Both the position numbers and the translations under genes were made by a program. A stretch of DNA of 64,000 bases from Natronospirales bacterium. GTDB taxonomy: Bacteria > Pseudomonadota > Gammaproteobacteria > Natronospirales > REEB76. Positions 731 to 18,648 of this stretch are shown piece after piece. How positions within the stretch are numbered: position 1 is the stretch's first letter; each line of letters begins with the position of its first letter. The DNA lies in assembly GCA_021792635.1 (NCBI GenBank), contig JAJYUH010000001.1:280710-344709 (forward strand). The letters run 5' to 3'. The notes under the pieces are model-generated. The model saw only the letters and a program-made list of their open reading frames with translations. It was not told the DNA's origin and did not search any database.

Positions 731-829
731 TACGGACAGGTTGCGTGAGCGCGGCCCAGGGGGAAGCTGCCTGCGTGACGACAGTCAACCGGGTTATGCC
801 ACAATGCCCCGCTGCGGCATCGCAGACAG

Positions 830-1582
830 GTGGGAAAGCAAGTGGCTGAGGAAATGGAAGGGTTTTCCATTGATCGCTGGTCAGCTTGGGCTCCGGGTGT
901 CCAGAATCTGCCGGCGTGGCGTGCCTGGATCAGGGGAGAACGGCTTGCGACACCGGACCAGTCACCCGATGTGAGCTTTCTGCCGGCGCTGCTGCGCCGA
1001 CGCCTGGATCGCGTCGGCCGCATGGCCCTGCATGTGGCTTGGCGCTGCGCCAAGGGCCAGGCGGACCTGCCGCTGGTGTTCGCTTCGCGCCATGGTTCTC
1101 TTGCCCGCACGGTGGAGTTGCTGGATGGACTGGCCCGGGATGAACCGCTTTCTCCCGCGGCGTTCAGCTTGTCGGTGCACAACGGCGCGGCGGGTCTGTT
1201 TTCCATCGCCCGCGCCGACAGGAGCCCGGCCACTGCCTTGGCGGCCGGTTCCGGGACCTTGGCGGCAGCGCTGCTGGAAGGCGCTGGCATGCTGACGGAG
1301 GGCACCGGTGCGGTGCTGGTCGTTTACGCAGACGAAACTCCGCCGCCGCAATACCAGGTCTACGTGGAACCGGATCAACCGGTCTTCGCATTGGGAATGT
1401 TGCTGACCGCTGCGCAGGGCAAACCACCGCGGTACCGGCTGACGCCGGTGCAGAGCGCGGTGCCGGCGCTGCGCCCGGAAGCGGCGCTCATGGAATTCCT
1501 GTTGGAAGATGCTGCCGTGGCCAGGCTGGATGCGAGTGAGTCCGGCTGGCGACTGGAGCGGGTAGGCAGCCATGCTGGATGA
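830..1582 (+). CDS. KS-like protein without recognisable catalytic triad (chain-length-factor/ApeC-like)
   Basis: 250-aa ORF. Its position and size match the KS-partner (CLF) of aryl-polyene clusters, and I saw no Cys-His-His KS triad by eye. Start uncertain (GTG 830 or ATG 854). Confidence 0.55.
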   Translation: MGKQVAEEMEGFSIDRWSAWAPGVQNLPAWRAWIRGERLATPDQSPDVSFLPALLRRRLDRVGRMALHVAWRCAKGQADLPLVFASRHGSLARTVELLDGLARDEPLSPAAFSLSVHNGAAGLFSIARADRSPATALAAGSGTLAAALLEGAGMLTEGTGAVLVVYADETPPPQYQVYVEPDQPVFALGMLLTAAQGKPPRYRLTPVQSAVPALRPEAALMEFLLEDAAVARLDASESGWRLERVGSHAG

Positions 1583-2336
1583 AGCGGAACCATTGGACCC
1601 GCGCCGCCGGGGATCCGTTCCCTCGCCGCTTCAGACGCGCGGTGGTCCGGACACGATTGCACCCGGCCACCAGGCAAGCTGGTTGCCGCGGGCTGTTTCC
1701 AGAATCAAGACCCATTGGCTGCTCAAGATGCTGGGTACCACGGGTTACATGACATTGTTCATGCTGGGCTATTTCTGGCTGCTGAGACATCCGCTGTTTC
1801 CGGTAACGGTCATGCCCCTGACCGGCCTGGACCGGCTGATCGGTTTCCAGCCCTGGAGCATCGTGTTGTACGCCTCTTTGTGGCTGTACATTTCACTGGT
1901 TCCCATGTTGCTCCCCGCCTGGCGTGAATTGCTCCCCTACCTCAGCGCGGTCACGGTCCTGAGCCTGACCGGTTTTGCGATTTTCTTTTTCTGGCCCACG
2001 GCCATCCCCGAGCCGGATATAAATTGGGCGCAGTATCCCTCCGTCGCCTTTCTGAAATCGGTGGATGCCTCGGGCAATGCCTGTCCCTCGCTGCATGTGG
2101 CGTTTGCGGTGTTGACCGGCATGTGGTTGCACCGCCTGCTCAGGCAGATGGGCGCGCCCATCAAGCTGTGCGCGCTCAATGCCTGCTGGTGTGCGGGGAT
2201 CGTCTATTCCACCCTGGCTCTCAAACAGCATGTGGTACTCGATGTGGAGGCGGGGGCGGTATTGGGTGCGGGGGTGGCGGCCTTGCATCTGTTTATTCTC
2301 CCCCGGCCGCGCATGCTGTACAGCGAGCTTGAATAA
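1572..2336 (+). CDS. PAP2-superfamily-like integral membrane protein
   Basis: Multi-TM ORF with 'CPSLHVAFAV' (PSGH-like C2) and 'LKQHVVLDV' (HxxxD, C3-like) motifs. Overlaps the upstream gene by 11 nt; an alternative start is ATG 1728. Confidence 0.5.
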   Translation: MLDEAEPLDPRRRGSVPSPLQTRGGPDTIAPGHQASWLPRAVSRIKTHWLLKMLGTTGYMTLFMLGYFWLLRHPLFPVTVMPLTGLDRLIGFQPWSIVLYASLWLYISLVPMLLPAWRELLPYLSAVTVLSLTGFAIFFFWPTAIPEPDINWAQYPSVAFLKSVDASGNACPSLHVAFAVLTGMWLHRLLRQMGAPIKLCALNACWCAGIVYSTLALKQHVVLDVEAGAVLGAGVAALHLFILPRPRMLYSELE

Positions 2337-2751
2337 GACGGATCGCCGTCCTCGCGATACCCGGCCCGGCCCCGACCCCGTGAATATGCGCCATGCCTTG
2401 CGATGCACTGAAATTGGACATTAAAATGTCGCGCCCGTGATTGAGCAGGCCCATGCCCAGGTCAATTCATGAAAAACGGGTGTTCGGTTTGATGGTTTGA
2501 TTAAGAAAGCCAAGGGGATTCAGCCCGACTGTGTGACTACACTCCCTGATTTATGGAACCGCATGCACCGACCTGCGCAATGGGAAGTGCGGCTGGTCGC
2601 TTCGAATGGCAAACGGCCCGGTGCCGGCCGGCGCCGGGGAGCGTGGCCCCGAAGGCGCACGCGGAGGTGGCGCTTCCGGGCCTGGGGGTGGAAGATGCGC
2701 CTGTGGCGGACGCGGCTGGGCCCGGCTGGCAGAGGGAACGGGTGGGCAGAC

Positions 2752-3546
2752 ATGCTTAAGAAGCTGGCCTATGGGTACCGTGCCTTGGGTACCGGGTTTT
2801 GTTTCGCCGGTTTTGGGGCGGGCTGCGTGGTGGTGGGCCTTACGCTGCTGCCCGTCATTCTGCTGTGGCCCGGCAACGCGACTGCGCGCCGGCGGCGGGT
2901 GCGCCGTCTGGTGAGCCTGGCCTTCAGGGTGCTGCTGGCGGCCATCCGCGGGCTGGGACTCGGGCGGGTGGAGGTGGAAGGCCGGGAATGGCTACAGCAT
3001 GCCGCCGGCCGGCTGGTGCTGGCCACCCATCCGAATTATCTGGATGCCGTGGTGCTGCTTTCCCTTTTGCCCATGGCGGATTGTGTGATAAAAAGCGGCC
3101 TGTGGCGCAACCCGTTCACGCGCGCATTCGTGATAGCGGCTGGCTATATAAGTAATAGTAATGAGGATCCGGTGGCGGCGATCGAAACCTGCATCCGGGC
3201 GGTACACGGCGGCCAGACGCTGGTGCTGTTCCCGGAAGGCACCCGCTCGACGCCAGGGGCACCGCTGCGCTTCAGGCGCGGTGCGGCACAAATCGCGGTG
3301 CGCGGCGATCTCGAAATCCTGCCGGTGGTCATGCACTGTTCACCGCCCGCGCTGCTCAAGACCACCAGGTGGTATCAGGTACCGGAGCGCGCCTGGGTGT
3401 TGCATGTGAAAATCTTTCCGCCGCGCTGCGTGAGCGATTTTGTGCCGCAGGTATCCCTGCCGCCGGCAATAGCGGTACGCCGCGCCACCCGCGCCCTGCA
3501 GAATTTCTTTCAGGAGCAGATCACGCAGTATGAACACGCTTATTGA
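2752..3546 (+). CDS. lysophospholipid (PlsC/LPLAT-family) acyltransferase, ApeD-like
   Basis: 'THPNYLDAV' (HX4D) and 'FPEGTRS' acyltransferase motifs. The ORF-track start at 2497 adds an Arg/Trp-rich extension judged non-coding, so ATG 2752 is preferred. Confidence 0.8.
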   Translation: MLKKLAYGYRALGTGFCFAGFGAGCVVVGLTLLPVILLWPGNATARRRRVRRLVSLAFRVLLAAIRGLGLGRVEVEGREWLQHAAGRLVLATHPNYLDAVVLLSLLPMADCVIKSGLWRNPFTRAFVIAAGYISNSNEDPVAAIETCIRAVHGGQTLVLFPEGTRSTPGAPLRFRRGAAQIAVRGDLEILPVVMHCSPPALLKTTRWYQVPERAWVLHVKIFPPRCVSDFVPQVSLPPAIAVRRATRALQNFFQEQITQYEHAY

Positions 3547-3790
3547 CGAGCTGAAGCAGCTCATCATCAACGTCCTGGATCTGGAGGATGTGACTCCGGC
3601 GGATATTGATCCGCATGCGCCCCTGTTCGGCGACGGTCTGGGACTCGACTCCATTGATGCCCTGGAGCTGGGAGTCGCCATCCAGAAACGTTATCACATC
3701 ACCCTGGACTCGACCTCCGCCGAAACCCGCCGGCATTTTTATTCGGTGGCGAATCTGGCGAAGTTCATTTCGGCGCAGCAAGCATCCTGA
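3530..3790 (+). CDS. acyl carrier protein
   Basis: 86 aa with 'GLGLDSIDALEL' phosphopantetheine-attachment (DSxD/L) motif. Overlaps the upstream gene by 17 nt. Confidence 0.85.
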   Translation: MNTLIDELKQLIINVLDLEDVTPADIDPHAPLFGDGLGLDSIDALELGVAIQKRYHITLDSTSAETRRHFYSVANLAKFISAQQAS

Positions 3791-3801
3791 GAGACATACC
3801 C

Positions 3802-4053
3802 ATGGATACCCAAGATGTTTTTCAGAAGCTCAAGAGCACCCTGGTGGAACAGTTCGAGCTGGATCCGGCGAAAATTGTGCCCGAAGCACGACTGTATGAG
3901 GACCTGGACCTGGACAGCATTGATGCGGTGGATCTGGTGATCAAGCTGCAGGAGATCACCGGCCGCAAGGTGAGCCCGGAGGATTTCAAAGGCGTGCGCA
4001 CAGTGGCAGACATCCAACGTGTCATAGAGAAGCTGATCGCCGCTCCGCAATGA
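3802..4053 (+). CDS. acyl carrier protein (second copy)
   Basis: 83 aa with 'LDLDSIDAVDLV' Ser-attachment motif. Tandem with the first ACP, as in APE clusters. Confidence 0.85.
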   Translation: MDTQDVFQKLKSTLVEQFELDPAKIVPEARLYEDLDLDSIDAVDLVIKLQEITGRKVSPEDFKGVRTVADIQRVIEKLIAAPQ

Positions 4054-4628
4054 CGCGTTCGGTCGTTCCTGCGCTGATTGTCATGGGGCTGTTCGCCTAT
4101 CCGCTGGTTATTTACTTCGCTGCCGGCCGCGTGGCGCCCAGGATACTCCTGGCGGGCGCACTGACGCTGTTGGCGCTGCGCGTGCTGTTTAAAACCTGGC
4201 GGGAATTCCGGCGCCCGTGGGGCCGGCTTGGTCTTGCCGCCGTCCTGCTTGTGGGCGCCATCGCAGTATGGTTCAGCCATGGCCTCAGCCTGCAGCGAGT
4301 GCGGCTGTATCCGGTGGCAATTGATGCGGTTTTTTTCCTGGTGTTTTTCCTCTCGTTGTTCACGCGCACGCCGCTGGTGGAGCGCATCGCCCGCGTCAGC
4401 GACCCTGAGCTTGGTCCCGATGCCATTCTTTACACCCGTCGCGTCACCCGGGTGTGGAGCGGCGTGCTGCTGGCCAACACGCTGATCGCGCTGTATACGG
4501 CGCTGCACGCGTCCATGGCCGCCTGGGCCCTGTACAACGGATTGCTGTCCTACCTGCTGATCGGGACGGTGTTCCTGGCGGAATACCTGATTCGTCGCCG
4601 GTCACGCCGCATCCGGACGCATCCATGA
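4050..4628 (+). CDS. small integral membrane protein (ApeG-like position), function unknown
   Basis: 192-aa hydrophobic ORF with 4-nt overlaps at both ends. No motif recognised. Confidence 0.5.
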   Translation: MTRSVVPALIVMGLFAYPLVIYFAAGRVAPRILLAGALTLLALRVLFKTWREFRRPWGRLGLAAVLLVGAIAVWFSHGLSLQRVRLYPVAIDAVFFLVFFLSLFTRTPLVERIARVSDPELGPDAILYTRRVTRVWSGVLLANTLIALYTALHASMAAWALYNGLLSYLLIGTVFLAEYLIRRRSRRIRTHP

Positions 4629-6013
4629 ATGCACCGGATCAAGTCAATTCGTTTGCCGATCAGAGACACCGGATTTCCGACATTCAACAAAGAGTGATCG
4701 CCCGCGGTGACAGCGGCGACCTGCTGGCCGGCGAATTCCAGCGACGCGTGGCCGGCATCGCCGGCTGTTTGTTGCAACGTCCCGAGCAGCGCTGGGCCCT
4801 GGTGTGTGATGACACCCTGTGGTTCGCGGCGGGTTTCCTGGCGCTGGCTCAGGCTCGCAAGACTCTGATCCTCCCGCAGACCGGCGGACCGGAGAGCGCA
4901 GCGGAGGCGCAAGCGGCGGCCGTGCTCACGGACCAGCCGGCGCGATTCCCGTCATTTGCCAGCGTGGATGTGACTGCCGTACCTGAAGCAGGCGCGCCGG
5001 TCAGTACCGACCTGGACGATGCGCTCCCCGTCGAGTTCTACACCTCGGGTTCCACCGGCCGGCCCAAGCGCGTGGACAAACTGCTTGGGCAATTGCGTGC
5101 CGAAGTGACGGCGCTGGAAGCCCGCTGGGGACCGGCGCTCGGCGACGCGCTGGTGCTTGGCAGCGTGCCGCATCATCATTTATATGGGCTGCTGTTCCGC
5201 GTTTTGTGGCCCCTGTGGGCGGGCCGCCCGCTGTATGCGCCTGCCTGTGCGCAAGCGCATGAATTCAAGGCGGCAGCCAGGCGGTTCGGACGTTGTCTGA
5301 TAGTCAGCAGTCCGGCCTTCCTGACTCGGGTTGCGGATTTCGCCATGCTGCAACCGCCGGATGCATTCGCGGCCCTGTTCAGTTCCGGCGCGCCGCTGCC
5401 GGCCGCCACGGCCGCAAAAATCGCCGGCGAAATGGGACGTGCGGCCATCGAGGTGTACGGCAGCACCGAAACCGGCGGCATTGCCTGGCGCACCTGGGAA
5501 CCCGAGAGAGGGCAAACTGCGTGGCAACCCTTCGCGCAGTTGGAGACGGCCTTGCTGGGGGCCACACCCGGACTTTTGCGAGTGCGCTCACCCTGGACCT
5601 GGAAGGCCGATTGGATGGACACCGATGATCTGGCGCAAATGCTGCCGCAGCGGCGTTTCCTGCTCTGCGGCCGGGCCGACAGCGTGCTGAAAGTGGAAGA
5701 CAAGCGTGTCTCACTTGCGGAAATGGAACGGCGTCTTGTTGCCCATGGGTTCGTGAGTGAAGCACGCCTGCTGGTACTGAAGGGCAAACGCAATTCGGTG
5801 GGTGCGGTGGTGGTGCTGAGCACCGCCGGGCGCCGCCAACTGGAACAGGCCGGAACACGGAGCGTGCGCAAGGCGCTCATGGACTGGCTGCGCGCCTGGT
5901 ATGACCCGGTACTGGTGCCGCGCAAATGGCGCTTCCGGGAGGCCATGCCGGACAATGCCATGGGCAAGATCGAACAGGCGGAACTGCAAGCACTGTTCAC
6001 GGAGCGGCGTTGA
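4625..6013 (+). CDS. AMP-dependent (adenylate-forming) acyl/aryl ligase, ApeH-like
   Basis: 'YTSGSTGRPK' (A3), 'YGSTETG' (A5) and 'GRADSVLKVEDKRV' (A8) cores. ATG 4625 overlaps the upstream TGA, so the ORF-track start at 4454 is rejected. Confidence 0.8.
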   Translation: MNAPDQVNSFADQRHRISDIQQRVIARGDSGDLLAGEFQRRVAGIAGCLLQRPEQRWALVCDDTLWFAAGFLALAQARKTLILPQTGGPESAAEAQAAAVLTDQPARFPSFASVDVTAVPEAGAPVSTDLDDALPVEFYTSGSTGRPKRVDKLLGQLRAEVTALEARWGPALGDALVLGSVPHHHLYGLLFRVLWPLWAGRPLYAPACAQAHEFKAAARRFGRCLIVSSPAFLTRVADFAMLQPPDAFAALFSSGAPLPAATAAKIAGEMGRAAIEVYGSTETGGIAWRTWEPERGQTAWQPFAQLETALLGATPGLLRVRSPWTWKADWMDTDDLAQMLPQRRFLLCGRADSVLKVEDKRVSLAEMERRLVAHGFVSEARLLVLKGKRNSVGAVVVLSTAGRRQLEQAGTRSVRKALMDWLRAWYDPVLVPRKWRFREAMPDNAMGKIEQAELQALFTERR

Positions 6014-6360
6014 TGGAACTCCCGGCGGTGCTGCATCGGCACGTGGCGGGTGACAGCGCCCGCGTGGAACTGGACGTGCATGCCGATCTCAGGTGGTTCG
6101 CGGGCCATTTCCCCGGACATCCCATCCTGCCCGGCGTGGTACAGCTCGCCTGGGCGGTGCATTTTTCCAGGGAGATTTTCGGCTACGGTCCCGGCGTGAG
6201 CGTCCTTGAGCAGCTCAAGTTCAAGCGACCCATCGGACCCGGCTGTCATATCACTCTGTTGCTGGTGCGGCGCCCCGCTGACACGGCTGTGAGTTTCGAG
6301 TACCGTGATGCGCACACCAGCTTCGCCTCGGGCAACTTGAGGTTTAAGCCATCCACATGA
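6013..6360 (+). CDS. hotdog-fold 3-hydroxyacyl-ACP dehydratase (FabZ/FabA-like, ApeI-like)
   Basis: 'FAGHFPGHPILPGVVQL' dehydratase signature. ATG overlaps the upstream TGA (TGATG). Confidence 0.75.
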   Translation: MELPAVLHRHVAGDSARVELDVHADLRWFAGHFPGHPILPGVVQLAWAVHFSREIFGYGPGVSVLEQLKFKRPIGPGCHITLLLVRRPADTAVSFEYRDAHTSFASGNLRFKPST

Positions 6361-8102
6361 ACTTCAAGGCCTGTGCCGTCATCCCCGTTTACAACCAGCA
6401 TGCCTGTCTTGTGCAGATTGCCGCGCGCTTGCGTGCCTGCGACCTGGCGTGCATCTTCGTGGACGACGGCAGCAATGCGACCACCAAGACGGTCCTGTCC
6501 AACCTCGCTTGCTCCGGAGCCGGCATGGAATGCCTGACTCTGCCGGGCAACCAGGGCAAGGGTGCCGCGGTGCTCGCCGGGCTTGAGCGCGCCGCCCAGC
6601 GTGGCTACAGCCATGCCTTGCAAGTGGACGCCGACGGCCAGCATGATCTGGACGACGTGCCGGCGCTGCTCAGGCTGGCCGAGACCCATTTTGAAAAACT
6701 CATATCCGGCCTGCCGGTATTCGACAATTCGGCGCCGCGTGTGCGCTTTTACGGGCGCTACCTCACCCATATTCTGGTGTGGATTGAAACCTTGTCGTTG
6801 CGATTGCGGGATTCCATGTGCGGCTTCCGCGTCTATCCACTCGCAGCCACGCTGGCGCTTGCACACAGCGTGAAACTCGGGCGGCGCATGCAATTCGATT
6901 CCGAGGTGATGGTGCGCCTGGACTGGCGCGGTGTGGAAAGCGTGTTCCTGCCCACGCGCGTGCGGTATCCAGCAGACGGTGTCTCCCATTTCCGGTACTT
7001 CACCGACAACCTGCACATGGGCTGGATGCACCTGCGCCTGTTCCTCGGCATGCTGCCGCGTATCCCCATGCTGTTGCGTCGCAAATTTGCACGGCACCGG
7101 GCGCGTCACTGGGCGCAATTGCCTGAGCGCGGCAGCGTATTGGGTATCCGTATCCTCGGCGCGGTGTACGCCCGGTGCGGCCGACGCGCCAGTCACCTGC
7201 TGCTGATGCCCGTGGTCTTTTATTTCCTCATCACCCATCCGCTGGCGCGGCGTGCCTCGCGCCAGTTTCTGACGGCGGTGCAGCCTTATACGCATGCTCT
7301 CGCCACCCGCGACGCGCGTCCCACCTGGCGCAACAGTTTCCGGCACTTCTGGCGCTTCGCCGTCGCCAATCTGGACATGCTGGTGGCTTGGCGCAGGCCG
7401 GGGCAGGTGACGGTGCATTTTCCGGCACGCGATCAACTGGTGACTGCCGTGAACCGCGGCCAGGGGGTGCTGCTCATCAGCGCGCACCTGGGCAATCTGG
7501 AAGTCACGCGCGCGCTGGCTACCCGGGAGCGGGGCCTGAAAGTGAACGCCCTCGTGTACACCCGGCATGCGTACAAATCCAATACGGTGCTGGATGAAGT
7601 GAGCGAGGCTTACAACCTGCGGCTGATCCAGGTGCAGGAACTGGGACCCGATACGGCGGTGATGCTGCGGGAGAAGGTGGCGGCCGGCGAGCTGGTGGCG
7701 ATCGTGGGCGACCGCACGCCGGTGTCCGCCGCGAGCCCGGTGGTGCAAGCGGATTTCCTGGGCCAGCCGGCGCCGTTCGCAGTAGGGCCGTACGTGCTGG
7801 CGCACGTGCTGGAATGCCCGGTATATCTTTTTTTCTGTATCGCCGAAGGCGACGGTTACACTATCCACTTGGAGCCCTTCGCGGAACGCATCCATTTGCC
7901 GCGCCGCGGCAGCGAGGCGGCCCTGCAGGCATGGGCGGGTCGTTACGCCGCCCGCCTGGCGGATTACGCCGCGCGTTTTCCGCTGCAGTGGTACAACTTC
8001 TATGATTTCTGGGCGGACCGTGGTCCGGCTGCAACCCGCCTGCGCGGCATCCACCACTCCAAAATGGATATCCATGGACAAGGCTCGCAAACACTTGCCT
8101 GA
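6357..8102 (+). CDS. fusion protein: family-2 glycosyltransferase (N-terminal) plus LpxL/HtrB-like lipid A-type acyltransferase (C-terminal), ApeJ-like
   Basis: N-terminal 'AVIPVYNQ...IFVDDGSNATT...QVDADGQH' (GT2). C-terminal 'LISAHLGNLEV' (HX4E of lauroyl/myristoyl acyltransferases). 581 aa. Confidence 0.75.
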   Translation: MNFKACAVIPVYNQHACLVQIAARLRACDLACIFVDDGSNATTKTVLSNLACSGAGMECLTLPGNQGKGAAVLAGLERAAQRGYSHALQVDADGQHDLDDVPALLRLAETHFEKLISGLPVFDNSAPRVRFYGRYLTHILVWIETLSLRLRDSMCGFRVYPLAATLALAHSVKLGRRMQFDSEVMVRLDWRGVESVFLPTRVRYPADGVSHFRYFTDNLHMGWMHLRLFLGMLPRIPMLLRRKFARHRARHWAQLPERGSVLGIRILGAVYARCGRRASHLLLMPVVFYFLITHPLARRASRQFLTAVQPYTHALATRDARPTWRNSFRHFWRFAVANLDMLVAWRRPGQVTVHFPARDQLVTAVNRGQGVLLISAHLGNLEVTRALATRERGLKVNALVYTRHAYKSNTVLDEVSEAYNLRLIQVQELGPDTAVMLREKVAAGELVAIVGDRTPVSAASPVVQADFLGQPAPFAVGPYVLAHVLECPVYLFFCIAEGDGYTIHLEPFAERIHLPRRGSEAALQAWAGRYAARLADYAARFPLQWYNFYDFWADRGPAATRLRGIHHSKMDIHGQGSQTLA

Positions 8103-9645
8103 ACCCGGCGCCCTGACAGTGGGCGGACGGCCGCTGCGCATCGCCGATGTCTGCGCCGTGGCGCGCGGCGCGTCTCCTGGCTTGAACGCCGCACCCGCAT
8201 TCCGCCAGCGTATTGACGCCGGTGCACGCATGCTTGCCGGGCACATCGCCGCGGGCCGGCCGATATACGGCGTGAGCACCGGCTACGGTGATTCCTGCAC
8301 CGTCAGCATCCCGCCGCAGGTGCTGGAAGAACTGCCGGTGCACCTCATTCATTATCACGGCTGCGGCCTGGGCCGGCATTTCGACGAGCCCACCGCCGCC
8401 GCCGTCCTGGTGACGCGCCTGGCGTCACTGGCCGCCGGATTTTCCGGTGTGCGCTTCGAAGTGTTGCAGCAACTGCAGGCATTTCTGCAGCGGCGCATCA
8501 TTCCGCTGATACCAGAAGAAGGCTCGGTGGGTGCCAGCGGTGATCTCACGCCGCTGTCATACGTGGCCGCCGCGCTCATGGGTGAGCGGCAGGTGTATTT
8601 TCGCGGACGCGTGTGTGCCGCCGCGGAAGCGCTCGGGGAAACCGGCCTCCAACCCCTGACGTTCCGGCCCAAGGAAGGTCTGGCGCTCATGAACGGTACC
8701 TCGGTCATGACGGCGTTGGCTTGTCTCGCTTGGGAGCGGGCCGAATATCTGACGCGCCTGGCAAGCCGTATCACCGCCATGGCGAGCCTCGCCATGGACG
8801 GCAACCGGGAGCATTTCGCGCCGGGCCTGTTCGCCGCCAAACCCCATGCGGGCCAGCAGCAGGTGGCGGCATGGATTTACGCCGACCTGAGCGTGGGCCG
8901 CGGGGAACGGAACAACGGCGTGCAGGACCGCTATTCCATCCGCTGCGCACCCCAGGTGATCGGAGTACTGGCCGACGCGCTCGGCTGGATGCGGCGCGAT
9001 ATCGAGACCGAACTCAACAGTGCCAACGACAATCCCATCATTGATCCGGACAGCGGCGCCGTCTATCACGGCGGACATTTCTACGGCGGACACATCGCTT
9101 TCGTGGCCGACTGTCTGAAAACCGCCGTCGCCAACATCGCCGACCTGCTGGACCGGCAACTGGCGCTGCTGGTGGACAGCCGCTTCAGCAACGGCCTGCC
9201 GCGCAATCTTTCCGGTGCCCGCGGTGCACGCGCCCAGCTCAACCACGGTTTCAAGGCGGTACAGATCGCGGTCTCCGCCTGGACCGCGGAGGCGCTCAAA
9301 CTCACCATGCCGGCGAGCGTGTTCTCGCGTTCCACCGAATGCCACAACCAGGACAAGGTGAGCATGGGCACCATCGCCGCCCGCGACGCCATCCGGGTGC
9401 TGGAACTCACCGAGCAGGTGGCGGCCGCTTGTCTGGCCGCGGTTTGCCAGGCGCTGGAAATCCGCCGGCGTCTGCTGTCGCCGTCCGCCGGCCAGCCCGG
9501 GGAATCCATCCGTGCCACGCAGCAGCAGGTGCTGGCGCTGTGTCCGTTCGTGGAGGAGGACCGGCCGCTGGAAAACGAGTTGCGCAGCCTGTGTACGGCC
9601 ATTCAGCAGCGCCGCTGGCCGCTGTATGGGAAGGAAACGTCATGA
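8074..9645 (+). CDS. MIO-dependent aromatic amino acid/histidine ammonia-lyase (HAL/TAL/PAL family)
   Basis: 'GSVGASGDLTPLSYVA' (Ala-Ser-Gly MIO precursor), 'YGVSTGYG' Tyr-loop and 'NGTSVMTA'. Start ATG 8074 gives the typical N-terminus (overlaps upstream gene by 29 nt). Confidence 0.85.
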   Translation: MDKARKHLPEPGALTVGGRPLRIADVCAVARGASPGLNAAPAFRQRIDAGARMLAGHIAAGRPIYGVSTGYGDSCTVSIPPQVLEELPVHLIHYHGCGLGRHFDEPTAAAVLVTRLASLAAGFSGVRFEVLQQLQAFLQRRIIPLIPEEGSVGASGDLTPLSYVAAALMGERQVYFRGRVCAAAEALGETGLQPLTFRPKEGLALMNGTSVMTALACLAWERAEYLTRLASRITAMASLAMDGNREHFAPGLFAAKPHAGQQQVAAWIYADLSVGRGERNNGVQDRYSIRCAPQVIGVLADALGWMRRDIETELNSANDNPIIDPDSGAVYHGGHFYGGHIAFVADCLKTAVANIADLLDRQLALLVDSRFSNGLPRNLSGARGARAQLNHGFKAVQIAVSAWTAEALKLTMPASVFSRSTECHNQDKVSMGTIAARDAIRVLELTEQVAAACLAAVCQALEIRRRLLSPSAGQPGESIRATQQQVLALCPFVEEDRPLENELRSLCTAIQQRRWPLYGKETS

Positions 9646-10064
9646 TGAAAAAAGCGCTGCTGTGCGCCGAGGTGGAGATGGAAGTCCCGTTTCAGGACGT
9701 GGACGTCATGCAGGTGGTCTGGCACGGAAATTATTTCCGCTATTTCGAGGCGGCCCGCAGCCAGCTCCTGCGCAGGATTGATTACGATTATGCCGAGATG
9801 CGCGCCTCGAATTATCTGTGGCCCATCATCGAGACCCGGGTGCGTTTCGTGCAGGCAGTGCATTATCGCCAGCAAATTGTGGTGAGCGCCATGCTCATGG
9901 AATGGGAGAACCGCCTCAGAATTGATTACCGCATCCGCGATGCGCACACCGGCGCGCGGCTTACCACCTGCTACACCATCCAGTGCGCCGTGGACGCCCA
10001 AACGCACGCATTGCAACTGGTCAGCCCGCCGCCGCTCCTGGAACGTCTCAAGGCATATCTATGA
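9642..10064 (+). CDS. 4HBT/YbgC-type hotdog thioesterase (ApeK-like)
   Basis: 140 aa. 'VPFQDVDVMQVVWHGNYFRYFE' is typical of the 4-hydroxybenzoyl-CoA thioesterase fold. ATGATGA overlap with upstream stop. Confidence 0.7.
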   Translation: MMKKALLCAEVEMEVPFQDVDVMQVVWHGNYFRYFEAARSQLLRRIDYDYAEMRASNYLWPIIETRVRFVQAVHYRQQIVVSAMLMEWENRLRIDYRIRDAHTGARLTTCYTIQCAVDAQTHALQLVSPPPLLERLKAYL

Positions 10065-10642
10065 GTCGCAGGAAATCCGCAGCGGCCTTATGTGCCGTAA
10101 CCCTGTTGCTTGTCGCCGCTTTCCCGGCCGCCACCGGCGCCGCCGATCTGTCCAAGGCGCCGGAATCCTTCCGTGCGCGCTTCATCGAAACCCGCACCCT
10201 GCCCGGCTTCGATCAGCCGCTGGTTTCCCGCGGCAACGTGACTTTCAGCCGTACCCGCGGCGTCGTCTGGGAAGTGACCGCGCCCTATCATTATGTTTTC
10301 AGGCTGAGTGCCAGCGGCGCCGAAGAACAGATGCCCGACGGCTCGGTACGGCATCTGGATGCGGAACACGCACCCTGGCTTGCCGTGGTGCGGCATATCT
10401 TCAGCGGCGCCCTGGCGGGCAACATTTCGGAGCTGAGACGCTATTTTCACGTGCGGGTGACGGCGCTCCGGGCCGGCCGCCGCATCGAACTCACTCCCAA
10501 ATCCGGTCCCATGGCCAAGGCCATAAACCATATCCGCGTCACCGAGGCGGGTACGCCCCGGTCCCTGCGCATTGATGAAGCATCCGGCGGCCGCATCGTC
10601 ATCCGTTTCCTGGAAGCAAAAACCGCCGCGGAGATGCCGTGA
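10061..10642 (+). CDS. LolA-like periplasmic lipid/lipoprotein carrier (ApeL-like)
   Basis: Signal peptide 'MSRRKSAAALCAVTLLLVAAFPAATGA'. Size and position between the thioesterase and the MMPL exporter match APE clusters. Confidence 0.55.
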   Translation: MSRRKSAAALCAVTLLLVAAFPAATGAADLSKAPESFRARFIETRTLPGFDQPLVSRGNVTFSRTRGVVWEVTAPYHYVFRLSASGAEEQMPDGSVRHLDAEHAPWLAVVRHIFSGALAGNISELRRYFHVRVTALRAGRRIELTPKSGPMAKAINHIRVTEAGTPRSLRIDEASGGRIVIRFLEAKTAAEMP

Positions 10643-12951
10643 GTGCACCGGCCACGACGCTCATCAAACCGCTGATCTGGATTGCTGCGCTGACACTGCT
10701 GTGCGTGTGCGCCGCCCTGCGACTGGATCCGCGGCAACCGGTGGATACCAATCTTCTGGATCTGTTGCCGGCGACGCAGCAATCACCGCTGCTGGACGCG
10801 GCCACGGAGCGCACCCAGGGCGCGTTCTTGCGGGAATTGCTGCTGGTGGTAAGCGCCGCGGATTACTCGCAGGCGCGGCGCGGCGCAAAGGCCGCGCAAA
10901 CCGCGTTCGCCGCGGCGGGCCTGCCGCTCGCGGATGCGGCACGGAGTGTCCAGGCATTGATCGGCCTGTATCGCCGGCATCGTTACGCTTTGCTGACCGC
11001 TGCGGACCGGCAGCAGCTCGACAGAAACCCCGCCGGCGCCTTCACCAATGACGTGGCCGGCGAGTTTGCCAATCCGGCCGGCATGATGGGCGTATTTGGC
11101 GGCGATCCCGGCGGTTATCTCGGTCGCTTTCTCATGGGTCTGCCGCAGCCTTATGCAAACTTCACGCCTGACGGTGCGTTCATGTCGGCGCGGCGCAACG
11201 GAAAAAATTATTTCCTGTTGCGCGCCACGCTGCCGGAAGCGGCCCTGGGGGAGCGGGGTGCGGCACATGCGGCGCGCGCGGTGGCGGCAGCGCACGCCGC
11301 AGTAATGACACAATGTCCCGCATGCCGGGTGCGAGCCACCGGCGCGGCACTGTTCGCGGCTGCGGCCCAGAACGAAGCCCGGCAGGAAGTGTTATGGCTC
11401 ACCGCGGCCTCCATGCTGTTCATCGTGCTGCTGATCCTGCTGGTGTTCCGCAGTCTGCGGCCACTGATCCTGGGGGTACTGTCCGTCGGCGCGGGCGTGC
11501 TGGCGGGCGCCGCCGCGGTGCTGATCGGTTTCGGTTCGGTGCACATCCTGACGCTGGTATGCGGCACCACGCTGCTGGGGATCGCCATTGATTATGCCTT
11601 CCTGTATTTCGCCGAACACTGGTTCGGCGGCGGTGCGGCGCAATACACGCTCCACTCGGTTCTGCCGGGTCTGACCATGGGGCTCATCACCGGCGTCATT
11701 GCCTTCGCTTTCCTGCCGCTGGCCGGGTTTCCGGCGCTCACGCAGATCGCCGTATTTTCCGTGGCCGGGCTGATGATGTCGTACGCCACGGTGGTGTTGC
11801 TGTTTCCGTCGGCACTGCGCAAACGCCCCGCCGTCCGGTTTGCGAAACTATTGCAATTCCCGCAGCGGCTGCTGGTACTGGCTTGCCGGCGCACCCGCTG
11901 GCGCTATCTGGTGCCGCTGATCCTGCTCTTGTTATCCGTTCCGGGATGGTTCCAGTTGCACGCCAGCGACGCTGTGCGCGAATTGCAGAATTTTCCCAAG
12001 CCCCTGCTCAACGCCGACCGGGACGTTCGCACGCTGCTGGGACAGACATCGCCGCCGGGTTTCTTTCTGATTGAAGGCGGAAATCTCCAGCAGGCTTTGC
12101 AGCGGGAAGAGACCTTGTTCAATGTCACGGCTGTCGCAGTTCCCGGTGCGGTGGCATTGGGACTGTCGCGCTTCCTGCCTTCCGCATCGCGGCAGCGGGC
12201 GAACCTGGAGACCTGGGCGAGGGTTTATCGTGGTCCCGCGGCGCTCAAACGGGCGTTCGCACACATCGGTCTGCCTCCCGCATACGTGAATACCATGGAA
12301 GCCGGCTGGAAACACAATGCGCACACGCCGCTGACGCCGCGGGCTCTTTTGGCGGCGGAACCGGACCTGGGCCAGTTCGTGGTACGGGCGCGTAACCGCT
12401 GGGCGCTGATCGCCACCCTGCTCTCGTCACCCGCTACCGTGCCACAATTGCAAAACGCCGCAGCGCAGGTGCCCGGCGTGCGTTTCGTGGCGCCGTTGCA
12501 GCGCCTCACCGATACCTTCCGGCAGATCCGCCGGCGCGCCACCTGGCTGGTGGCGGCGGGGTATGTGCTGATTTCGCTGCTGCTCATCGGGCGTTACGGA
12601 CGGCGCGACACCCTGCGCATGCTGTATCCGCCGCTCCTGTCCCTGGCGGTGACGCTCGGGGCGCTCGGCTGGTTGCGGGTACCGGTGAATATTTTCGTGA
12701 TCGTCGGTCTGATCCTGGTACTGGGGGTGGGCCGGGATTACACCGTGTTTCTGCGGGAAGGCGCCCGCTCGCAGGCCACCGCTCTGGGGGTGACACTGGC
12801 GGCGCTGGCCACTCTGTGCTCATTCGGCATGCTGACCTTCAGCGCGATTCCCGCGCTGCATGCCTTTGGTCTCGCCACGCTGATCGGCATCCTGGCGAGC
12901 TATCTGAGTGCGCCCCTTTCCATTGCGCCGCACACGGAGGAGGCGACATGA
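10639..12951 (+). CDS. MMPL/RND-superfamily membrane exporter (ApeM-like)
   Basis: 770 aa with two blocks of about 6 TM helices separated by soluble domains. GTG start overlaps the upstream TGA. Confidence 0.75.
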   Translation: MSAPATTLIKPLIWIAALTLLCVCAALRLDPRQPVDTNLLDLLPATQQSPLLDAATERTQGAFLRELLLVVSAADYSQARRGAKAAQTAFAAAGLPLADAARSVQALIGLYRRHRYALLTAADRQQLDRNPAGAFTNDVAGEFANPAGMMGVFGGDPGGYLGRFLMGLPQPYANFTPDGAFMSARRNGKNYFLLRATLPEAALGERGAAHAARAVAAAHAAVMTQCPACRVRATGAALFAAAAQNEARQEVLWLTAASMLFIVLLILLVFRSLRPLILGVLSVGAGVLAGAAAVLIGFGSVHILTLVCGTTLLGIAIDYAFLYFAEHWFGGGAAQYTLHSVLPGLTMGLITGVIAFAFLPLAGFPALTQIAVFSVAGLMMSYATVVLLFPSALRKRPAVRFAKLLQFPQRLLVLACRRTRWRYLVPLILLLLSVPGWFQLHASDAVRELQNFPKPLLNADRDVRTLLGQTSPPGFFLIEGGNLQQALQREETLFNVTAVAVPGAVALGLSRFLPSASRQRANLETWARVYRGPAALKRAFAHIGLPPAYVNTMEAGWKHNAHTPLTPRALLAAEPDLGQFVVRARNRWALIATLLSSPATVPQLQNAAAQVPGVRFVAPLQRLTDTFRQIRRRATWLVAAGYVLISLLLIGRYGRRDTLRMLYPPLLSLAVTLGALGWLRVPVNIFVIVGLILVLGVGRDYTVFLREGARSQATALGVTLAALATLCSFGMLTFSAIPALHAFGLATLIGILASYLSAPLSIAPHTEEAT

Positions 12952-13526
12952 ACAGGCAGGCCGGGTCTGCCGCTTTGGCATTGAGCGTACTGTTCACAGC
13001 CGGCTGTGCCAGCATGCTTCCGGCGGCCGGCTGCATGGCTTTCGTCCGCGGTGGACAGCTCTGTCTGCTGCCGCCGGCGCAATTGCCGCCGCTGGACGGT
13101 GCCCACATGGTCACCATTGATCATGACGGCACGCAGCAGACGTTCATCGGCCAACTGCATATTGATGCACGTGTCATCCGTCTGGCAGGCAGCAGCCTGC
13201 TCGGCCCCGGCCTGTTCAGCGTCAGCTACAACGGCCGCACTCTGCAAAGCGAGCCGGCCCACGGACCACAGCGTGCTGACCTGCTCATCATCATGCTGGA
13301 GCTGGTGATGGCCCGGCAACGGGCACTGCAACCGGCATTACGCGGCATGCGACTGACACAAACCACGGCTGCGGACGGCACGCGGGTGCGTGAACTCTTC
13401 GCGGGGGGGCGTCGGGTAGCGCATATCGAAATCAGCACCGGGCCGCTGAGGCAGGCCACCATCCGCTTCGATATTCCGCCGGCGCATCTGTCTGTATTGA
13501 TGCAACCGCTGGCGGCACGGCCCTGA
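12948..13526 (+). CDS. lipoprotein, DUF3261-like (ApeN-like)
   Basis: Lipobox 'LFTAGC' after a signal peptide. ATGA overlap upstream. Assignment rests on position in the cluster. Confidence 0.55.
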   Translation: MNRQAGSAALALSVLFTAGCASMLPAAGCMAFVRGGQLCLLPPAQLPPLDGAHMVTIDHDGTQQTFIGQLHIDARVIRLAGSSLLGPGLFSVSYNGRTLQSEPAHGPQRADLLIIMLELVMARQRALQPALRGMRLTQTTAADGTRVRELFAGGRRVAHIEISTGPLRQATIRFDIPPAHLSVLMQPLAARP

Positions 13527-14704
13527 TGCGCACCTATTTGCACGCACTCGGCATCATCAATGCACTGGGCAGTGGCGCACAGACGGTGCGCACCGGGCTG
13601 CACACCGCCAGCCTTTCACGCCTGGTGGTGCGTGACGACCTGGTGCCGGGGCGGGAGGTGCGGGTGGCCGCGGTAAATGAGACATTGCCGGACATCCTGC
13701 CGGCGCTTACGGCGGCGTACGCCAGCCGCAACAATCGCCTGCTGCAGGCGTGCGTGCATCAGATACGTCCGCAGATTGACGCGGTCATCAACCGCTTCGG
13801 TCCCGGACGCGTCGGCATCGTACTGGGCACCAGCACCTCGGGCATTCTGGAAGGCGAACAGGCGGTCAGGCGGCGCCGCGAGCAGGGTGAATTCCCGCAC
13901 GAGTTCGATTACCGGCAGCAGGAAATCAGCAGCCCTTCGGAATATCTCCGGCGTGCGCTCGGCATCACCGGCCCGGCCTGGACCGTATCCACCGCCTGCA
14001 CCTCCAGTGCCAAGGCCTTCGCCTCCGCACGCCGGCTGCTGCGCATGAACGCATGCGACGCGGTAATCGCGGGCGGCGCCGATTCCCTGTGCCGGCTCAC
14101 GCTCAACGGCTTTACGGCACTGGAGTCGGTGGCACGGCAGGTCTGTAATCCCTTCAGCCGCAACCGCGACGGCATCATGCTCGGCGAAGGTGCGGCGGTG
14201 CTGGTATTGTCGCGGCAACCGGGGCCGGTGTGCCTGCTGGGCGTGGGAGAATCCTCCGACGCCTATCACATCTCGGGGCCGGACCCGGAAGGCCGGGGCG
14301 CGGAAATCGCCATGCGCGCGGCGCTCACGGACGCGGGTATGACTGCCGGCGAGGTGGATTACCTCAATCTCCACGGCACCGGTACCCCGCAGAACGACCT
14401 GATGGAAAGCCACGCGGTGGCGCGCGTATTCGGCACGGATTTGCCCTGCAGTTCCACCAAACCGCTGGTGGGGCACATGCTGGGCGCGGCAGGCGCCACC
14501 GAGCTGGCTTTTTGCTGGCTGCTGCTCACGGAACACGGTGCGCACACGCGCCTGCCGCCCCATGTATGGGACGGCGAACGGGATCCGGCGCTTGCTCCCT
14601 TAAGCCTGTGCGCGCAGGATGACCCGTCGCGCGACTGCCATATCATGGCCAGCAACTCGTTCGCCTTCGGCGGCAGCAATACCACATTGATAATAGGGGC
14701 TTGA
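13526..14704 (+). CDS. beta-ketoacyl-ACP synthase (KAS I/II family, ApeO-like)
   Basis: 'STACTSSAKAF' (active Cys), 'LHGTGTPQND' and 'GHMLGAAG' (His-His). 392 aa. Confidence 0.85.
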   Translation: MRTYLHALGIINALGSGAQTVRTGLHTASLSRLVVRDDLVPGREVRVAAVNETLPDILPALTAAYASRNNRLLQACVHQIRPQIDAVINRFGPGRVGIVLGTSTSGILEGEQAVRRRREQGEFPHEFDYRQQEISSPSEYLRRALGITGPAWTVSTACTSSAKAFASARRLLRMNACDAVIAGGADSLCRLTLNGFTALESVARQVCNPFSRNRDGIMLGEGAAVLVLSRQPGPVCLLGVGESSDAYHISGPDPEGRGAEIAMRAALTDAGMTAGEVDYLNLHGTGTPQNDLMESHAVARVFGTDLPCSSTKPLVGHMLGAAGATELAFCWLLLTEHGAHTRLPPHVWDGERDPALAPLSLCAQDDPSRDCHIMASNSFAFGGSNTTLIIGA

Positions 14705-14707
14705 AGC

Positions 14708-15154
14708 ATGGCGGAAGCATTGCCGGCAGTCGCGGAATTGCTACCCCTCGCCGGTAGCGCAATTCTGCTGGATGAATTGCGGGCGGAAACCGCCCACGGC
14801 GTGATTGCCGCGGCCCGCATCGGCCGCAGCCACCTGTTCTTTTCCGTTGAACAGCGGGGTGTGCCCAGTTGGGTGGGCATTGAACTCATGGCCCAGACCA
14901 TTGGCCTGCATGCCGGTCTGGTGGCACGCCGGGAAAACCGGCCGCCGCAGGTGGGGTACCTCCTGGGCACACGGCGCTATGCGCCCGAGACGTCATGGTT
15001 CCCGGAGGGCGCATCGCTCGAGATCCGCGTCGAGCGGCTCTATCTGGATGACTCCGGACTGGGGGCTTACGATTGCACCATCGTCAGTGACGACGCGTTG
15101 CTGGCGCATGCCACCATCACCGTGTTTCAAACTGCAGCCGAGGTGGGCCCGTGA
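14708..15154 (+). CDS. hotdog-fold dehydratase (ApeP-like)
   Basis: 148 aa. 'GIELMAQTIG' resembles the FabZ-like hotdog core. Lies between the KS and KR genes. Confidence 0.6.
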   Translation: MAEALPAVAELLPLAGSAILLDELRAETAHGVIAAARIGRSHLFFSVEQRGVPSWVGIELMAQTIGLHAGLVARRENRPPQVGYLLGTRRYAPETSWFPEGASLEIRVERLYLDDSGLGAYDCTIVSDDALLAHATITVFQTAAEVGP

Positions 15155-15882
15155 GTACCGCGAAACGGGTACTGGTGACCGGCGCGAGCCGGGGCATCGG
15201 CAAGGCCATTGCCGTGAAGCTGGCGCAAGACGGTTTTGCCGTCACGGTGCATGGTTACCGCAGCCCGGAAAAGGCCGAAGCCGTGGTCGCGCAGATACGC
15301 GCCGCGGGCGCCGCCGCCGCCACACTCGCTTTCGATATCGCGGATCGCGCACAAGCGGGTGCCGCGCTGGCACAGGATGTGGCCGCCCACGGCGCGTATT
15401 GGGGTGTGGTGTGCAACGCCGGCATCGCCGCCGACCATGCCTTTCCCGCCATGCCCGCCGAAGACTGGGAGCGTGTGATTCACACCAATCTGGGCGGTTT
15501 CTACAATGTGCTGCAGCCGCTCGTCATGCCCATGGTGCGCCTGCATCAGGGCGGCCGCATTGTCACGCTGGCGTCCGTGTCGGGCCTCATGGGTAACCGC
15601 GGCCAGGTGAATTACAGCGCCTCCAAGGCCGGCATCATCGGCGCCAGCAAGGCCCTGGCGGTGGAACTGGCGAGCCGCCAGATCACCGTGAACTGCGTGG
15701 CGCCGGGCCTGATCGAGACCGACATGAGCGGCGGCTTGCCGCTGGAAGACCTGCTCAAACAGATTCCCATGGGCCGCGTGGGTCAACCCGAGGAAGTGGC
15801 GGCACTGGTGGGCTTCCTGTTTTCCGACGGCGCCGCCTACATCACCCGCCAGGTGTTTTCCGTGAACGGAGGCATGGTGTGA
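15151..15882 (+). CDS. fabG: 3-oxoacyl-ACP reductase (SDR, FabG family, ApeQ-like)
   Basis: 'VTGASRGIGKAIA' Rossmann motif and 'YSASKAG' (YxxxK). 243 aa. Confidence 0.9.
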   Translation: MSTAKRVLVTGASRGIGKAIAVKLAQDGFAVTVHGYRSPEKAEAVVAQIRAAGAAAATLAFDIADRAQAGAALAQDVAAHGAYWGVVCNAGIAADHAFPAMPAEDWERVIHTNLGGFYNVLQPLVMPMVRLHQGGRIVTLASVSGLMGNRGQVNYSASKAGIIGASKALAVELASRQITVNCVAPGLIETDMSGGLPLEDLLKQIPMGRVGQPEEVAALVGFLFSDGAAYITRQVFSVNGGMV

Positions 15883-18024: not shown

Positions 18025-18648
18025 ATGATGCGGAAAAAACAATTGGCGCTGTATGCAGCGTTGCTGGTGACATTAGTTGCGCCAGTGCCGGCACTGGCGC
18101 GTCACCCGTATCGCTTCGTCCCTTCCGAGTCCTGTATTCGGCCGCATCCGCCCCAAGCCAGTGTCACGCTTGCCCATGCTCGGGCTACCGTGAGCTTCTC
18201 GCCGGACGGACGCGGTGAGGCACTGATCCTGAAGGCGGTCAGCGCGGCACGGCATACGATTCTGGTGCAGGCCTACAGTTTCAGCGACCGGCGCATCCTG
18301 GCCGCGCTGGGAGAAGCCAGGTCGCGAGGCGTGGACGTGCGGGTGATTCTCGACAAGACGGATACCGAGAGTTACGAACATCGCAAACCGGTGGCGGCGA
18401 TCCTTTCCGCGGAGGGCATCCCGGTGTGGATCGACAATGCGGTACGCATCGCGCATAACAAGGTAATGATTATTGACGGCACCGACCTCATCACCGGTTC
18501 CTACAATTTCACCTACGCGGCTGCCTACCACAACGCCGAGAACCTGCTTTACATCCGTAACGCCGCCGCACTGGTGCATGCCTATATTGCCAACTGGAAT
18601 TGGCGGCTGAGTTGCGCGCAAGCCTACGCCGGCCGACCGGTGAGGTGA
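18025..18648 (+). CDS. secreted HKD-motif phospholipase D-superfamily protein (Nuc-like endonuclease/PLD)
   Basis: Signal peptide 'MMRKKQLALYAALLVTLVAPVPALA' and a single HKD motif 'AHNKVMIIDGTDLITGSYNFT'. 207 aa. Confidence 0.75.
   Translation: MMRKKQLALYAALLVTLVAPVPALARHPYRFVPSESCIRPHPPQASVTLAHARATVSFSPDGRGEALILKAVSAARHTILVQAYSFSDRRILAALGEARSRGVDVRVILDKTDTESYEHRKPVAAILSAEGIPVWIDNAVRIAHNKVMIIDGTDLITGSYNFTYAAAYHNAENLLYIRNAAALVHAYIANWNWRLSCAQAYAGRPVR

Follow-up and report, generated by a model that had tools for sequence, protein, structure and literature searches.

Aryl-polyene (APE) clusters are among the commonest biosynthetic gene clusters of Gram-negative bacteria. The window analysed here, a stretch of 64,000 nucleotides (nt) from contig JAJYUH010000001.1 of a Natronospirales bacterium, carries an APE operon that includes a gene for an aromatic amino-acid ammonia-lyase dependent on the 4-methylideneimidazole-5-one (MIO) group. 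With a probability of about 0.7, the encoded protein is a BagA-type MIO tyrosine ammonia-lyase (TAL) and the standard starter-unit enzyme of a Vibrio fischeri-type APE cluster (APE_Vf). The starter of the polyene is predicted, with fair confidence, to be p-coumarate. It can be read from the selectivity dyad of the enzyme because BagA, a tyrosine ammonia-lyase, has the same Tyr-His dyad, and both Tyr-His and Phe-His had already been described as TAL-like. An earlier note on this DNA had regarded the starter as unreadable from known selectivity codes and perhaps new, a view overturned by the precedent of BagA; its proposal of an arylacrylate starter like that of flexirubin synthesis, drawn from where the gene lies in the operon, is upheld.

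The lyase would convert L-tyrosine to trans-p-coumarate and ammonia, and His95, in the column of His93 of the aminomutase SgTAM, would select L-tyrosine through its phenol hydroxyl. The ApeH-like ligase of the operon would then adenylate p-coumarate and load it onto one of two acyl carrier proteins (ACPs), from which a type II ketosynthase/chain-length factor (KS/CLF), a ketoreductase (KR) and a dehydratase (DH) would extend it to a 4-hydroxyphenyl polyene. Such a start would need one elongation round less than a start from 4-hydroxybenzoate (4-HBA). ApeH of Acinetobacter baumannii loads both 4-HBA and p-coumarate onto ApeE in vitro. Since p-coumarate equals 4-HBA plus one elongation round, the product cannot distinguish the two starters. 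Telling 4-HBA priming (Escherichia coli type) from tyrosine/p-coumarate priming (V. fischeri and flexirubin types) nevertheless helps product prediction and the rebuilding of pathways, and the window would provide one more example of the tyrosine/p-coumarate-primed type.

The lyase gene and its catalytic residues

The reading frame is open from ATG 8074 to TGA 9643-9645 and encodes 523 amino acids (aa). Its start lies 29 nt before the stop codon of the ApeJ-like gene (8100-8102), and its stop codon overlaps the thioesterase start as ATGA (9642-9645), in agreement with the earlier note, which had placed the gene between its ApeJ-like and ApeK-like neighbours and overlapping both. Translation could alternatively begin at an in-frame GTG at 8119, which would leave no overlap with the ApeJ-like gene. 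The same ATGA coupling of lyase and thioesterase is found on contig L081 of a metagenome-assembled genome (MAG). The GC content of the gene (0.664) and that of its third codon positions (GC3, 0.79) both match the operon.

Residues 21-471 match the Pfam profile PF00221 (Lyase_aromatic; E 6.9e-161). The Ala-Ser-Gly triad in 'GASGDL', also recognised in the earlier note, is present; it aligns with A149-S150-G151 of the TAL of Rhodobacter sphaeroides (RsTAL) and A167-S168-G169 of the phenylalanine ammonia-lyase (PAL) AvPAL, and it is invariant in alignment A1 (Table 1). A MAFFT-based residue map, which returns the known numbering of the reference enzymes, recovers the full MIO catalytic set of Tyr65, Ala154-Ser155-Gly156, Asn207, Tyr287, Arg290 and Phe336, with Asn207 and Tyr287 aligned to Asn203 and Tyr300 of RsTAL. 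The AlphaFold2 (AF2) model has a pLDDT of 92.8 and superimposes on RsTAL, SgTAM and AvPAL at a template-modelling score (TM) of ~0.88. The nearest solved structures are RsTAL (34% identity) and SgTAM (33%), none exceeding 34%. Because RsTAL, SgTAM, AvPAL and histidine ammonia-lyase (HAL) all match the model about equally (TM 0.85-0.90), the fold does not separate substrates. Triad, catalytic residues, profile and fold together assign the protein to the MIO aromatic amino-acid lyase/aminomutase superfamily.

The Tyr-His dyad and the aryl pocket

In phmmer alignments to sequences of the Protein Data Bank (PDB), the lyase segment LPVHLIHYHGCGLG pairs without gaps with LQRSLVLSHAAGIG of Pseudomonas putida HAL (PpHAL), LQANLVHHLASGVG of RsTAL (His89-Leu90), LQTNLVWFLKTGAG of AvPAL (Phe107-Leu108) and LQKNLIRSHSSGVG of Thermoplasma HAL. 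The four gap-free alignments therefore place the dyad at Tyr94-His95, opposite Ser-His of HAL, His89-Leu90 of RsTAL and Phe107-Leu108 of AvPAL. This dyad also aligns with S92-H93 of SgTAM ('LVRSHSAGVG'), where, counted from the catalytic Tyr63, His93 shares a column with lyase His95 (Tyr65 plus 30). His93 of SgTAM reportedly hydrogen-bonds the phenol hydroxyl of the substrate.

The by-eye alignment to HAL and the Tyr-His dyad of the earlier note were therefore correct, but the three-way code with which the dyad had been compared (Ser-His for HAL, His-Leu for TAL, Phe-Leu for PAL) is incomplete. The dyads printed in one alignment are Tyr-His in the TAL BagA (LIRYHLNG), Phe-Leu in the PAL StlA (LLTFLSAG), Ser-His in SgTAM, CmdF and PpHAL, and His-Leu in the TAL Sam8 (Weise 2017). 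BagA is a strict tyrosine ammonia-lyase, the His at the dyad position has been tied to strict TAL activity, and Tyr-His and Phe-His are termed 'TAL-like' (Weise 2017). FlxA combines a motif 1 of the HAL kind with Gln in motif 2, and an assay has shown it to be a TAL (Schoener 2014). At least three tyrosine-using MIO lineages carry X-His, namely BagA, SgTAM/CmdF and FlxA, and RsTAL and Sam8, with His-Leu, represent one TAL solution out of several. The two-residue 'selectivity code' is incomplete in that a His at position 2 marks several tyrosine-using MIO enzymes; what sets HAL apart from the other MIO enzymes is the Glu/Gln choice in motif 2, where Glu denotes HAL and Gln denotes TAL or PAL (Schoener 2014). 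Motif 2 reads 'STECHNQDK' in the lyase, 'STNAANQD' in RsTAL and 'PTSANQED' in HAL, and the HAL-marking Glu (PpHAL Glu414) is Gln426 in the lyase.

The residues of BagA were taken from the supplementary alignment of Weise 2017 and from mutational scans with hidden Markov models (HMMs), because an NCBIfam scan of 20 representatives, ten from the Tyr-His/Phe-His clade and ten with other dyads, contained no BagA orthologue. The best NCBIfam model for the lyase is BagA_FevW (NF041222), on which it scores 440.8 bits, above all 20 other representatives scanned. In the printed alignment, 'YGVTTGFGDS', 'HGFKGMQI' and FSRSTEAHNQDKVSM of BagA stand against 'YGVSTGYGDS', 'HGFKAVQI' and FSRSTECHNQDKVSM of the lyase, and motif 2 of BagA is 'STEAHNQDK'. 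All readable pocket residues of BagA (Tyr-His, Lys, Ile, Glu, His, Asn, Gln) are those of the lyase. Over the printed blocks, BagA has the highest identity to the lyase among the characterised enzymes (55.7%), followed by SgTAM (49.6%), StlA (43%), AvPAL (41%), PpHAL (40%) and Sam8 (36%), values that are rough since they come from machine-read conserved blocks.

For the dyad scan, a fragment of the lyase was given ten alternative dyads and scored on NCBIfam models. BagA_FevW scored Tyr-His best (141.1 bits), ahead of Phe-His (138.9), Ser-His (136.6), Tyr-Leu (136.3) and His-Leu (133.3). The other two models scored Ser-His best: hutH with 195.0 bits (Tyr-His 190.8, His-Leu 185.0) and the FlxA model with 147.4 bits (Tyr-His 143.7, His-Leu 138.7). 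Each of the substitutions D73E, D73G, D73P, Y337F, Y337L, Y337H, K394M, I398Y, E422N and H424A cut the BagA_FevW score, by 2.1-4.4 bits. The hutH score rose by 2.0-5.4 bits with Y337H, K394M and I398Y and by less than 1 bit with D73E, E422N and H424A, and went slightly down with the other four. These scans, indirect as they are, agree with the printed alignment, and Tyr337 appears to be favoured for BagA too. The pocket of the lyase is of the BagA type in having Tyr-His at AvPAL positions 107-108, where Tyr-His or Phe-His is expected, on an otherwise PAL-like background.

A neighbour-joining (NJ) tree was built from 128 sequences. These were the window protein with 13 relatives from named genomes, 111 representatives found by searching 1.84 billion proteins, and RsTAL, AvPAL and one HAL from the PDB alignments; the full BagA sequence was not among them. 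The clade that holds the lyase has 62 members; 52 of them have [Tyr/Phe]-His, 53 have the Lys394/Ile398 pair, and in most of them position 337 is Tyr or Phe and a 'TE..NQD' motif is present. The lyase's side of the tree is separated from the HAL, RsTAL-type, tyrosine aminomutase (TAM), FlxA-type and AvPAL references in 100/100 bootstraps, and the exact 62-member clade is recovered in 71/100. With Tyr-His in a separate clade, the lyase lacks the His-Leu dyad of the RsTAL/Sam8 His89 switch, and on the FlxA model (NF053541) it reaches 321.9 bits against a cut-off of 700.

Relatives of the lyase are annotated as 'histidine ammonia-lyase' in their sources, and His95 matches His83 of HAL, as would be expected of a HutH paralogue with no role in pigment formation. 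That origin is extremely improbable in view of the replacement of the HAL Glu by Gln426 and of the HAL Ser by Tyr, a hutH (TIGR01225) score of 398.2 bits under the cut-off of 539, the separation from the HAL clade in all bootstraps, and the translational coupling of the lyase within an APE operon of conserved synteny. Grouping with HutH had been named in the earlier note as the outcome that would speak against its proposal. The alignment and phylogeny it had suggested instead leave the dyad where it was placed and, by the hutH score, Gln426, the tree separation and the position of the lyase among [Tyr/Phe]-His proteins, indicate that the enzyme is not a bona fide HutH.

A tyrosine 2,3-aminomutase, making beta-tyrosine instead of acting as a lyase, would be in keeping with SgTAM being among the nearest solved structures and having the position-2 His in common, and Asp73 aligns with the acidic residue of SgTAM ('YGE' in SgTAM, 'YGD' in the lyase). 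BagA, a lyase, also has 'GFGDS' at this place, however. The lyase scores 311.1 bits on the tyrosine 2,3-aminomutase model TIGR03832, under the cut-off of 501, and lies outside the TAM clade, that of P0217 (836 bits on the same model); a beta-amino acid moreover has no evident role in polyene priming. Aminomutase activity is thus highly improbable.

Distribution of the family and its substrate

Relatives of the lyase were sought in one genome per species and occur in at least 593 species-representative genomes; the locus counts below refer to the best 80 of these. The best 80 loci encode proteins with 58-74% identity to the lyase and come from Vibrio, Photobacterium, Aliivibrio, Idiomarina, Shewanella, Pseudoxanthomonas, Arenimonas, Herbaspirillum, Janthinobacterium, Pseudomonas, Propionivibrio, Archangium and many MAGs. 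A tblastn search with the operon proteins of the window found the ApeJ-like/lyase/ApeK-like order and the surrounding cluster in nearly all of those with enough flanking DNA. The lyase is not the oddity in an APE operon that it had been taken for. In two papers, the genes given as typical of the Aliivibrio fischeri ES114 APE cluster (MIBiG BGC0000837) include an ammonia lyase. Because the slot is conserved and the lyase is named as typical there, the window has a V. fischeri-type cluster with the lyase as a standard part. Besides the ammonia-lyase gene within the cluster, the operon has the type II KS/CLF, KR, DH, tandem ACPs, ApeH ligase and ApeJ/K/L/M/N genes of APE_Vf in conserved order, and is by its genes a V. 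fischeri-type aryl-polyene cluster. Lyases of this kind are widespread and already recognised as a component of such clusters, and this one is ordinary among them.

The second residue of the dyad is His in 79/79 loci. Among these, 33 have Tyr-His and 46 Phe-His, 'GCGLG' is present in 74 and 'STECHNQDKVS' in all 79. Of the 120 database proteins nearest to the lyase, 103 carry Tyr-His and 8 carry Phe-His according to a motif search, whose pattern did not fit the remaining 9. Neighbours in the tree may differ at position 1, as with the Phe-His of Pseudomonas beside the Tyr-His of Pseudoxanthomonas and Herbaspirillum. As Tyr and Phe swap between neighbouring branches, the hydroxyl at position 1 is not essential.

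Several points weigh against a BagA-type TAL. The score on BagA_FevW is far under the cut-off of 1000, so that the lyase is a relative of BagA and not an orthologue, and their identity of ~56% holds only in conserved blocks and is lower overall. The printed alignment was machine-read with visible errors, and the HMM scans are indirect. Position 1 of the dyad alternates between Tyr and Phe, and the rest of the aryl pocket, save Tyr94-His95 and Tyr337, is PAL-like: Lys394, Ile398, Glu422, Asn425 and Gln426 correspond to Lys419, Ile423, Glu448, Asn451 and Gln452 of AvPAL in the residue map. A literature search found no enzyme assay of the APE-cluster lyase subfamily, and substrate choice is for this reason inferred from BagA. 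In a sentence of one review, an enzyme of Pseudomonas fluorescens is labelled 'PAL/TAL'; if this enzyme belongs to the family, specificity may be relaxed.

The PAL-like pocket residues, the Phe at position 1 in more than half of the 79 relatives, the Phe-Leu members within the same clade (such as P0129, with 49% identity), the 'PAL/TAL' label and the PAL StlA, which combines Phe-Leu with 'TE.YNQD', would all suit a PAL or a mixed PAL/TAL. Polyene synthesis would then start from cinnamate or from a mixture, leaving the head group without a hydroxyl or with one added at a later stage. The 'XAL' of P. fluorescens R124 and the PAL of Kangiella koreensis may belong to the family. This alternative is unlikely given that His95, the residue separating BagA (a TAL with Tyr-His) from its PAL relatives (Phe-Leu), is invariant in the 79 loci, and that no hydroxylase gene is seen among the Pfam hits in the operon. 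Known APE head groups are 4-hydroxylated, that of APE_Vf reportedly being 4-hydroxyphenyl.

The substrate might instead be another or a modified amino acid, such as 3,4-dihydroxyphenylalanine (DOPA), a 3-substituted tyrosine or histidine, yielding an unusual acrylate starter as the earlier note had envisaged. Such a choice would accommodate family residues that BagA does not have (for instance Cys97 in 'GCGLG') and Tyr337 as a second polar group in the pocket. It is nonetheless very doubtful, since the readable pocket residues agree with BagA, with the HMM scan concurring for Tyr337 and Asp73, since Gln426 excludes a HAL-type site, and since the family sits in hundreds of ordinary APE clusters. 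In a related proposal, which is also quite unlikely, the [Tyr/Phe]-His lyases of APE clusters would not be strict TALs, and the Tyr/Phe exchange, Cys97 and Tyr337 would tune them to other or broader substrates (Phe, DOPA, ring-substituted Tyr). If this were true, the head group of the aryl polyene made by the methyltransferase-less lineage would be one not yet described. A BagA-type TAL that supplies p-coumarate remains the favoured assignment.

Some members and neighbours of the clade have other dyads. P0129, P0139, P0144 and P0164 have Phe-Leu on the same Lys/Ile and 'STE.HNQDK' background and look like natural PAL variants within the clade. The occurrence of Phe-Leu beside X-His within one clade is consistent with PAL and TAL differing by a Leu-to-His switch. 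In a distinct sister group (P0178, P0184, P0186, P0194, P0228), the dyad is Tyr-Leu, the Lys/Ile pair is replaced by Lys and Gln, and the motif reads 'SSE.HNQDK'. None of the curated models fits this group, the best NCBIfam hit of P0178 being D-beta-Phe aminomutase (342 bits; cut-off 800). In P0136 (2535 aa; domain at 621-1095), P0144 (975 aa) and P0240 (924 aa) the MIO lyase domain is part of a longer protein, presumably a fusion with modules of a non-ribosomal peptide synthetase (NRPS) or polyketide synthase (PKS).

The operon, its surroundings and known systems

The operon begins with a phosphopantetheinyl transferase (PPTase), followed by an ApeC-like CLF, a PAP2 phosphatase, an ApeD-like acyltransferase, two ACPs, an ApeG-like protein, an AMP-dependent ligase, an ApeI dehydratase, the ApeJ-like protein, the lyase and the ApeK-like thioesterase. 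It continues with a LolA-like protein, MMPL, DUF3261, a KS, an ApeP dehydratase, a KR and a second KS. A recent insertion of the lyase gene was considered and rejected, as its GC and GC3 fit the operon and the slot is kept in nearly all of the best 80 loci with enough flank.

Table 1. Positions within the window of the APE operon, the genes discussed and the active-site codons of the lyase.
Feature	Position	Strand	Basis
Whole aryl-polyene operon	8..17120	+	Pfam hits and gene order
Tandem ACP genes, ApeE/ApeF-like	3530..3790 and 3802..4053	+	PF00550
ApeH-like AMP-dependent ligase, predicted aryl-acid loading onto ACP	4625..6013	+	PF00501
ApeJ-like glycosyltransferase family 2 (GT2) and lipid A-type acyltransferase	6357..8102	+	PF00535 and PF03279; directly upstream of lyase
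MIO-dependent aromatic amino-acid ammonia-lyase, 523 aa, predicted BagA-type TAL	8074..9645	+	PF00221, profiles, AF2 model
Tyr65, catalytic base, inner loop	8266..8268	+	Aligns with RsTAL Tyr60, AvPAL Tyr78, HAL Tyr53; invariant in alignment A1
Selectivity dyad Tyr94-His95	8353..8358	+	Codons TATCAC = YH
MIO precursor Ala154-Ser155-Gly156 (in 'GASGDL')	8533..8541	+	Codons GCCAGCGGT = ASG
Arg290, carboxylate-binding (with Asn207 and Tyr287)	8941..8943	+	Aligns with RsTAL Arg303, AvPAL Arg317; invariant in alignment A1
His424-Asn425-Gln426, 'motif 2'	9343..9351	+	Gln426 in place of HAL-marking Glu
ApeK-like 4HBT thioesterase	9642..10064	+	PF13279; coupled to lyase stop by ATGA

The ligase has 32% identity over 437 aa to the acyl-CoA synthetase at the ApeH position of the APE cluster of E. 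coli CFT073. With GTG 4454 as start, its open reading frame is longest but would share 175 nt (4454-4628) with the ApeG-like gene. ATG 4625, which overlaps the ApeG-like stop as ATGA, is the likelier start; counted from it, the E. coli match begins at residue 36. The best NCBIfam hit of the ligase is 4-coumarate-CoA ligase (TIGR02372; 108 bits, cut-off 335), and this match was rejected as evidence on the starter. It is uninformative because E. coli ApeH, taken to use 4-HBA, also has this model as its top hit (75 bits), and the two scores are far under 335.

At the 5' end of the operon lie the PPTase (8-730) and the PAP2 phosphatase (1572-2336), and no ApeB-type methyltransferase is seen in the operon, unlike in E. 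coli CFT073. On its 3' side follow a PIG-L deacetylase (17126-17956, minus strand) and a PLD-like protein (18025-18648), both also found on the MAG contig L081, which is 96% identical; their target may be the pigment's lipid anchor. Further downstream, the intervals 22893-26379 and 27250-30869 hold a GGDEF-EAL protein and a second GGDEF protein, both of cyclic di-GMP signalling, and then a pair of 2-oxoacid:ferredoxin oxidoreductase genes. The 64,000 nt contain no tRNA genes. Between 46000 and 64000 the GC content drops from ~0.63 to 0.44-0.55, and the genes, all on the plus strand, encode FemAB/GNAT, DUF7033, flippase-like, asparagine synthase, GT1, Wzy_C, methyltransferase, Polysacc_synt_2 dehydratase and epimerase proteins. 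This is a surface-polysaccharide or O-antigen type cluster, and its low GC suggests a horizontal origin, which is common for such clusters.

Among characterised enzymes, HutH of P. putida (PDB 1B8F) has the fold, MIO triad and position-2 His of the lyase, but differs in the Ser at position 1, the Glu of motif 2, the hut-operon context and its separate clade, and it has His, Met and Tyr/Val where the lyase has Tyr337, Lys394 and Ile398. RsTAL (PDB 2O6Y) is the best structural match (TM 0.88 at 34% identity) and has the same catalytic residues. In contrast to the lyase, its dyad is His89-Leu90, its Met405, Val409 and Asn432 stand against Lys394, Ile398 and Glu422, and it too belongs to a separate clade.

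FlxA, from the flexirubin pathway of Chitinophaga and Flavobacterium, resembles the lyase in its position-2 His and motif 2 Gln, and in its pathway, as in the one predicted here, p-coumarate made from tyrosine primes an aryl polyene. Unlike the lyase, FlxA has Ser-His, falls in another clade (P0210, with 698 bits on the FlxA model) and works with the CoA ligase FlxY. BagA and FevW, of the bagremycin and ferroverdin pathways of Streptomyces, have the Tyr-His dyad, 'GFGDS' after the catalytic Tyr, the pocket Lys and Ile, and 'FSRSTE.HNQDKVSM' in common with the lyase. After the dyad, BagA continues as 'YHLNGT' and the lyase as 'YHGCGLG', and BagA serves an actinomycete pathway to an aminophenol-type product whereas the lyase belongs to a type II polyene cluster.

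The APE cluster of E. coli CFT073 follows the same ApeC-to-ApeR order as the window, apart from the PAP2 and lyase genes of the latter. Upstream, in the place taken by the PPTase in the window, it carries ApeA and a methyltransferase, and it has no lyase gene, ApeJ abutting ApeK. In clusters of this E. coli/Xenorhabdus type (ApeA-ApeR), the starter is thought to be 4-HBA from UbiC. The APE_Vf cluster of A. fischeri ES114 differs from the window operon at the 5' end, where the window has a PPTase and PAP2 and no methyltransferase is seen among its Pfam hits, and the lyases of Vibrionaceae have Phe-His where that of the window has Tyr-His. Neighbouring genes are common to the window and to the Aliivibrio, Vibrio and Photobacterium loci, and the A. 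fischeri lyase occupies the same slot between ApeJ-like and ApeK-like genes, with ~59-61% identity to that of the window and an identical His95 and 'STECHNQDK'.

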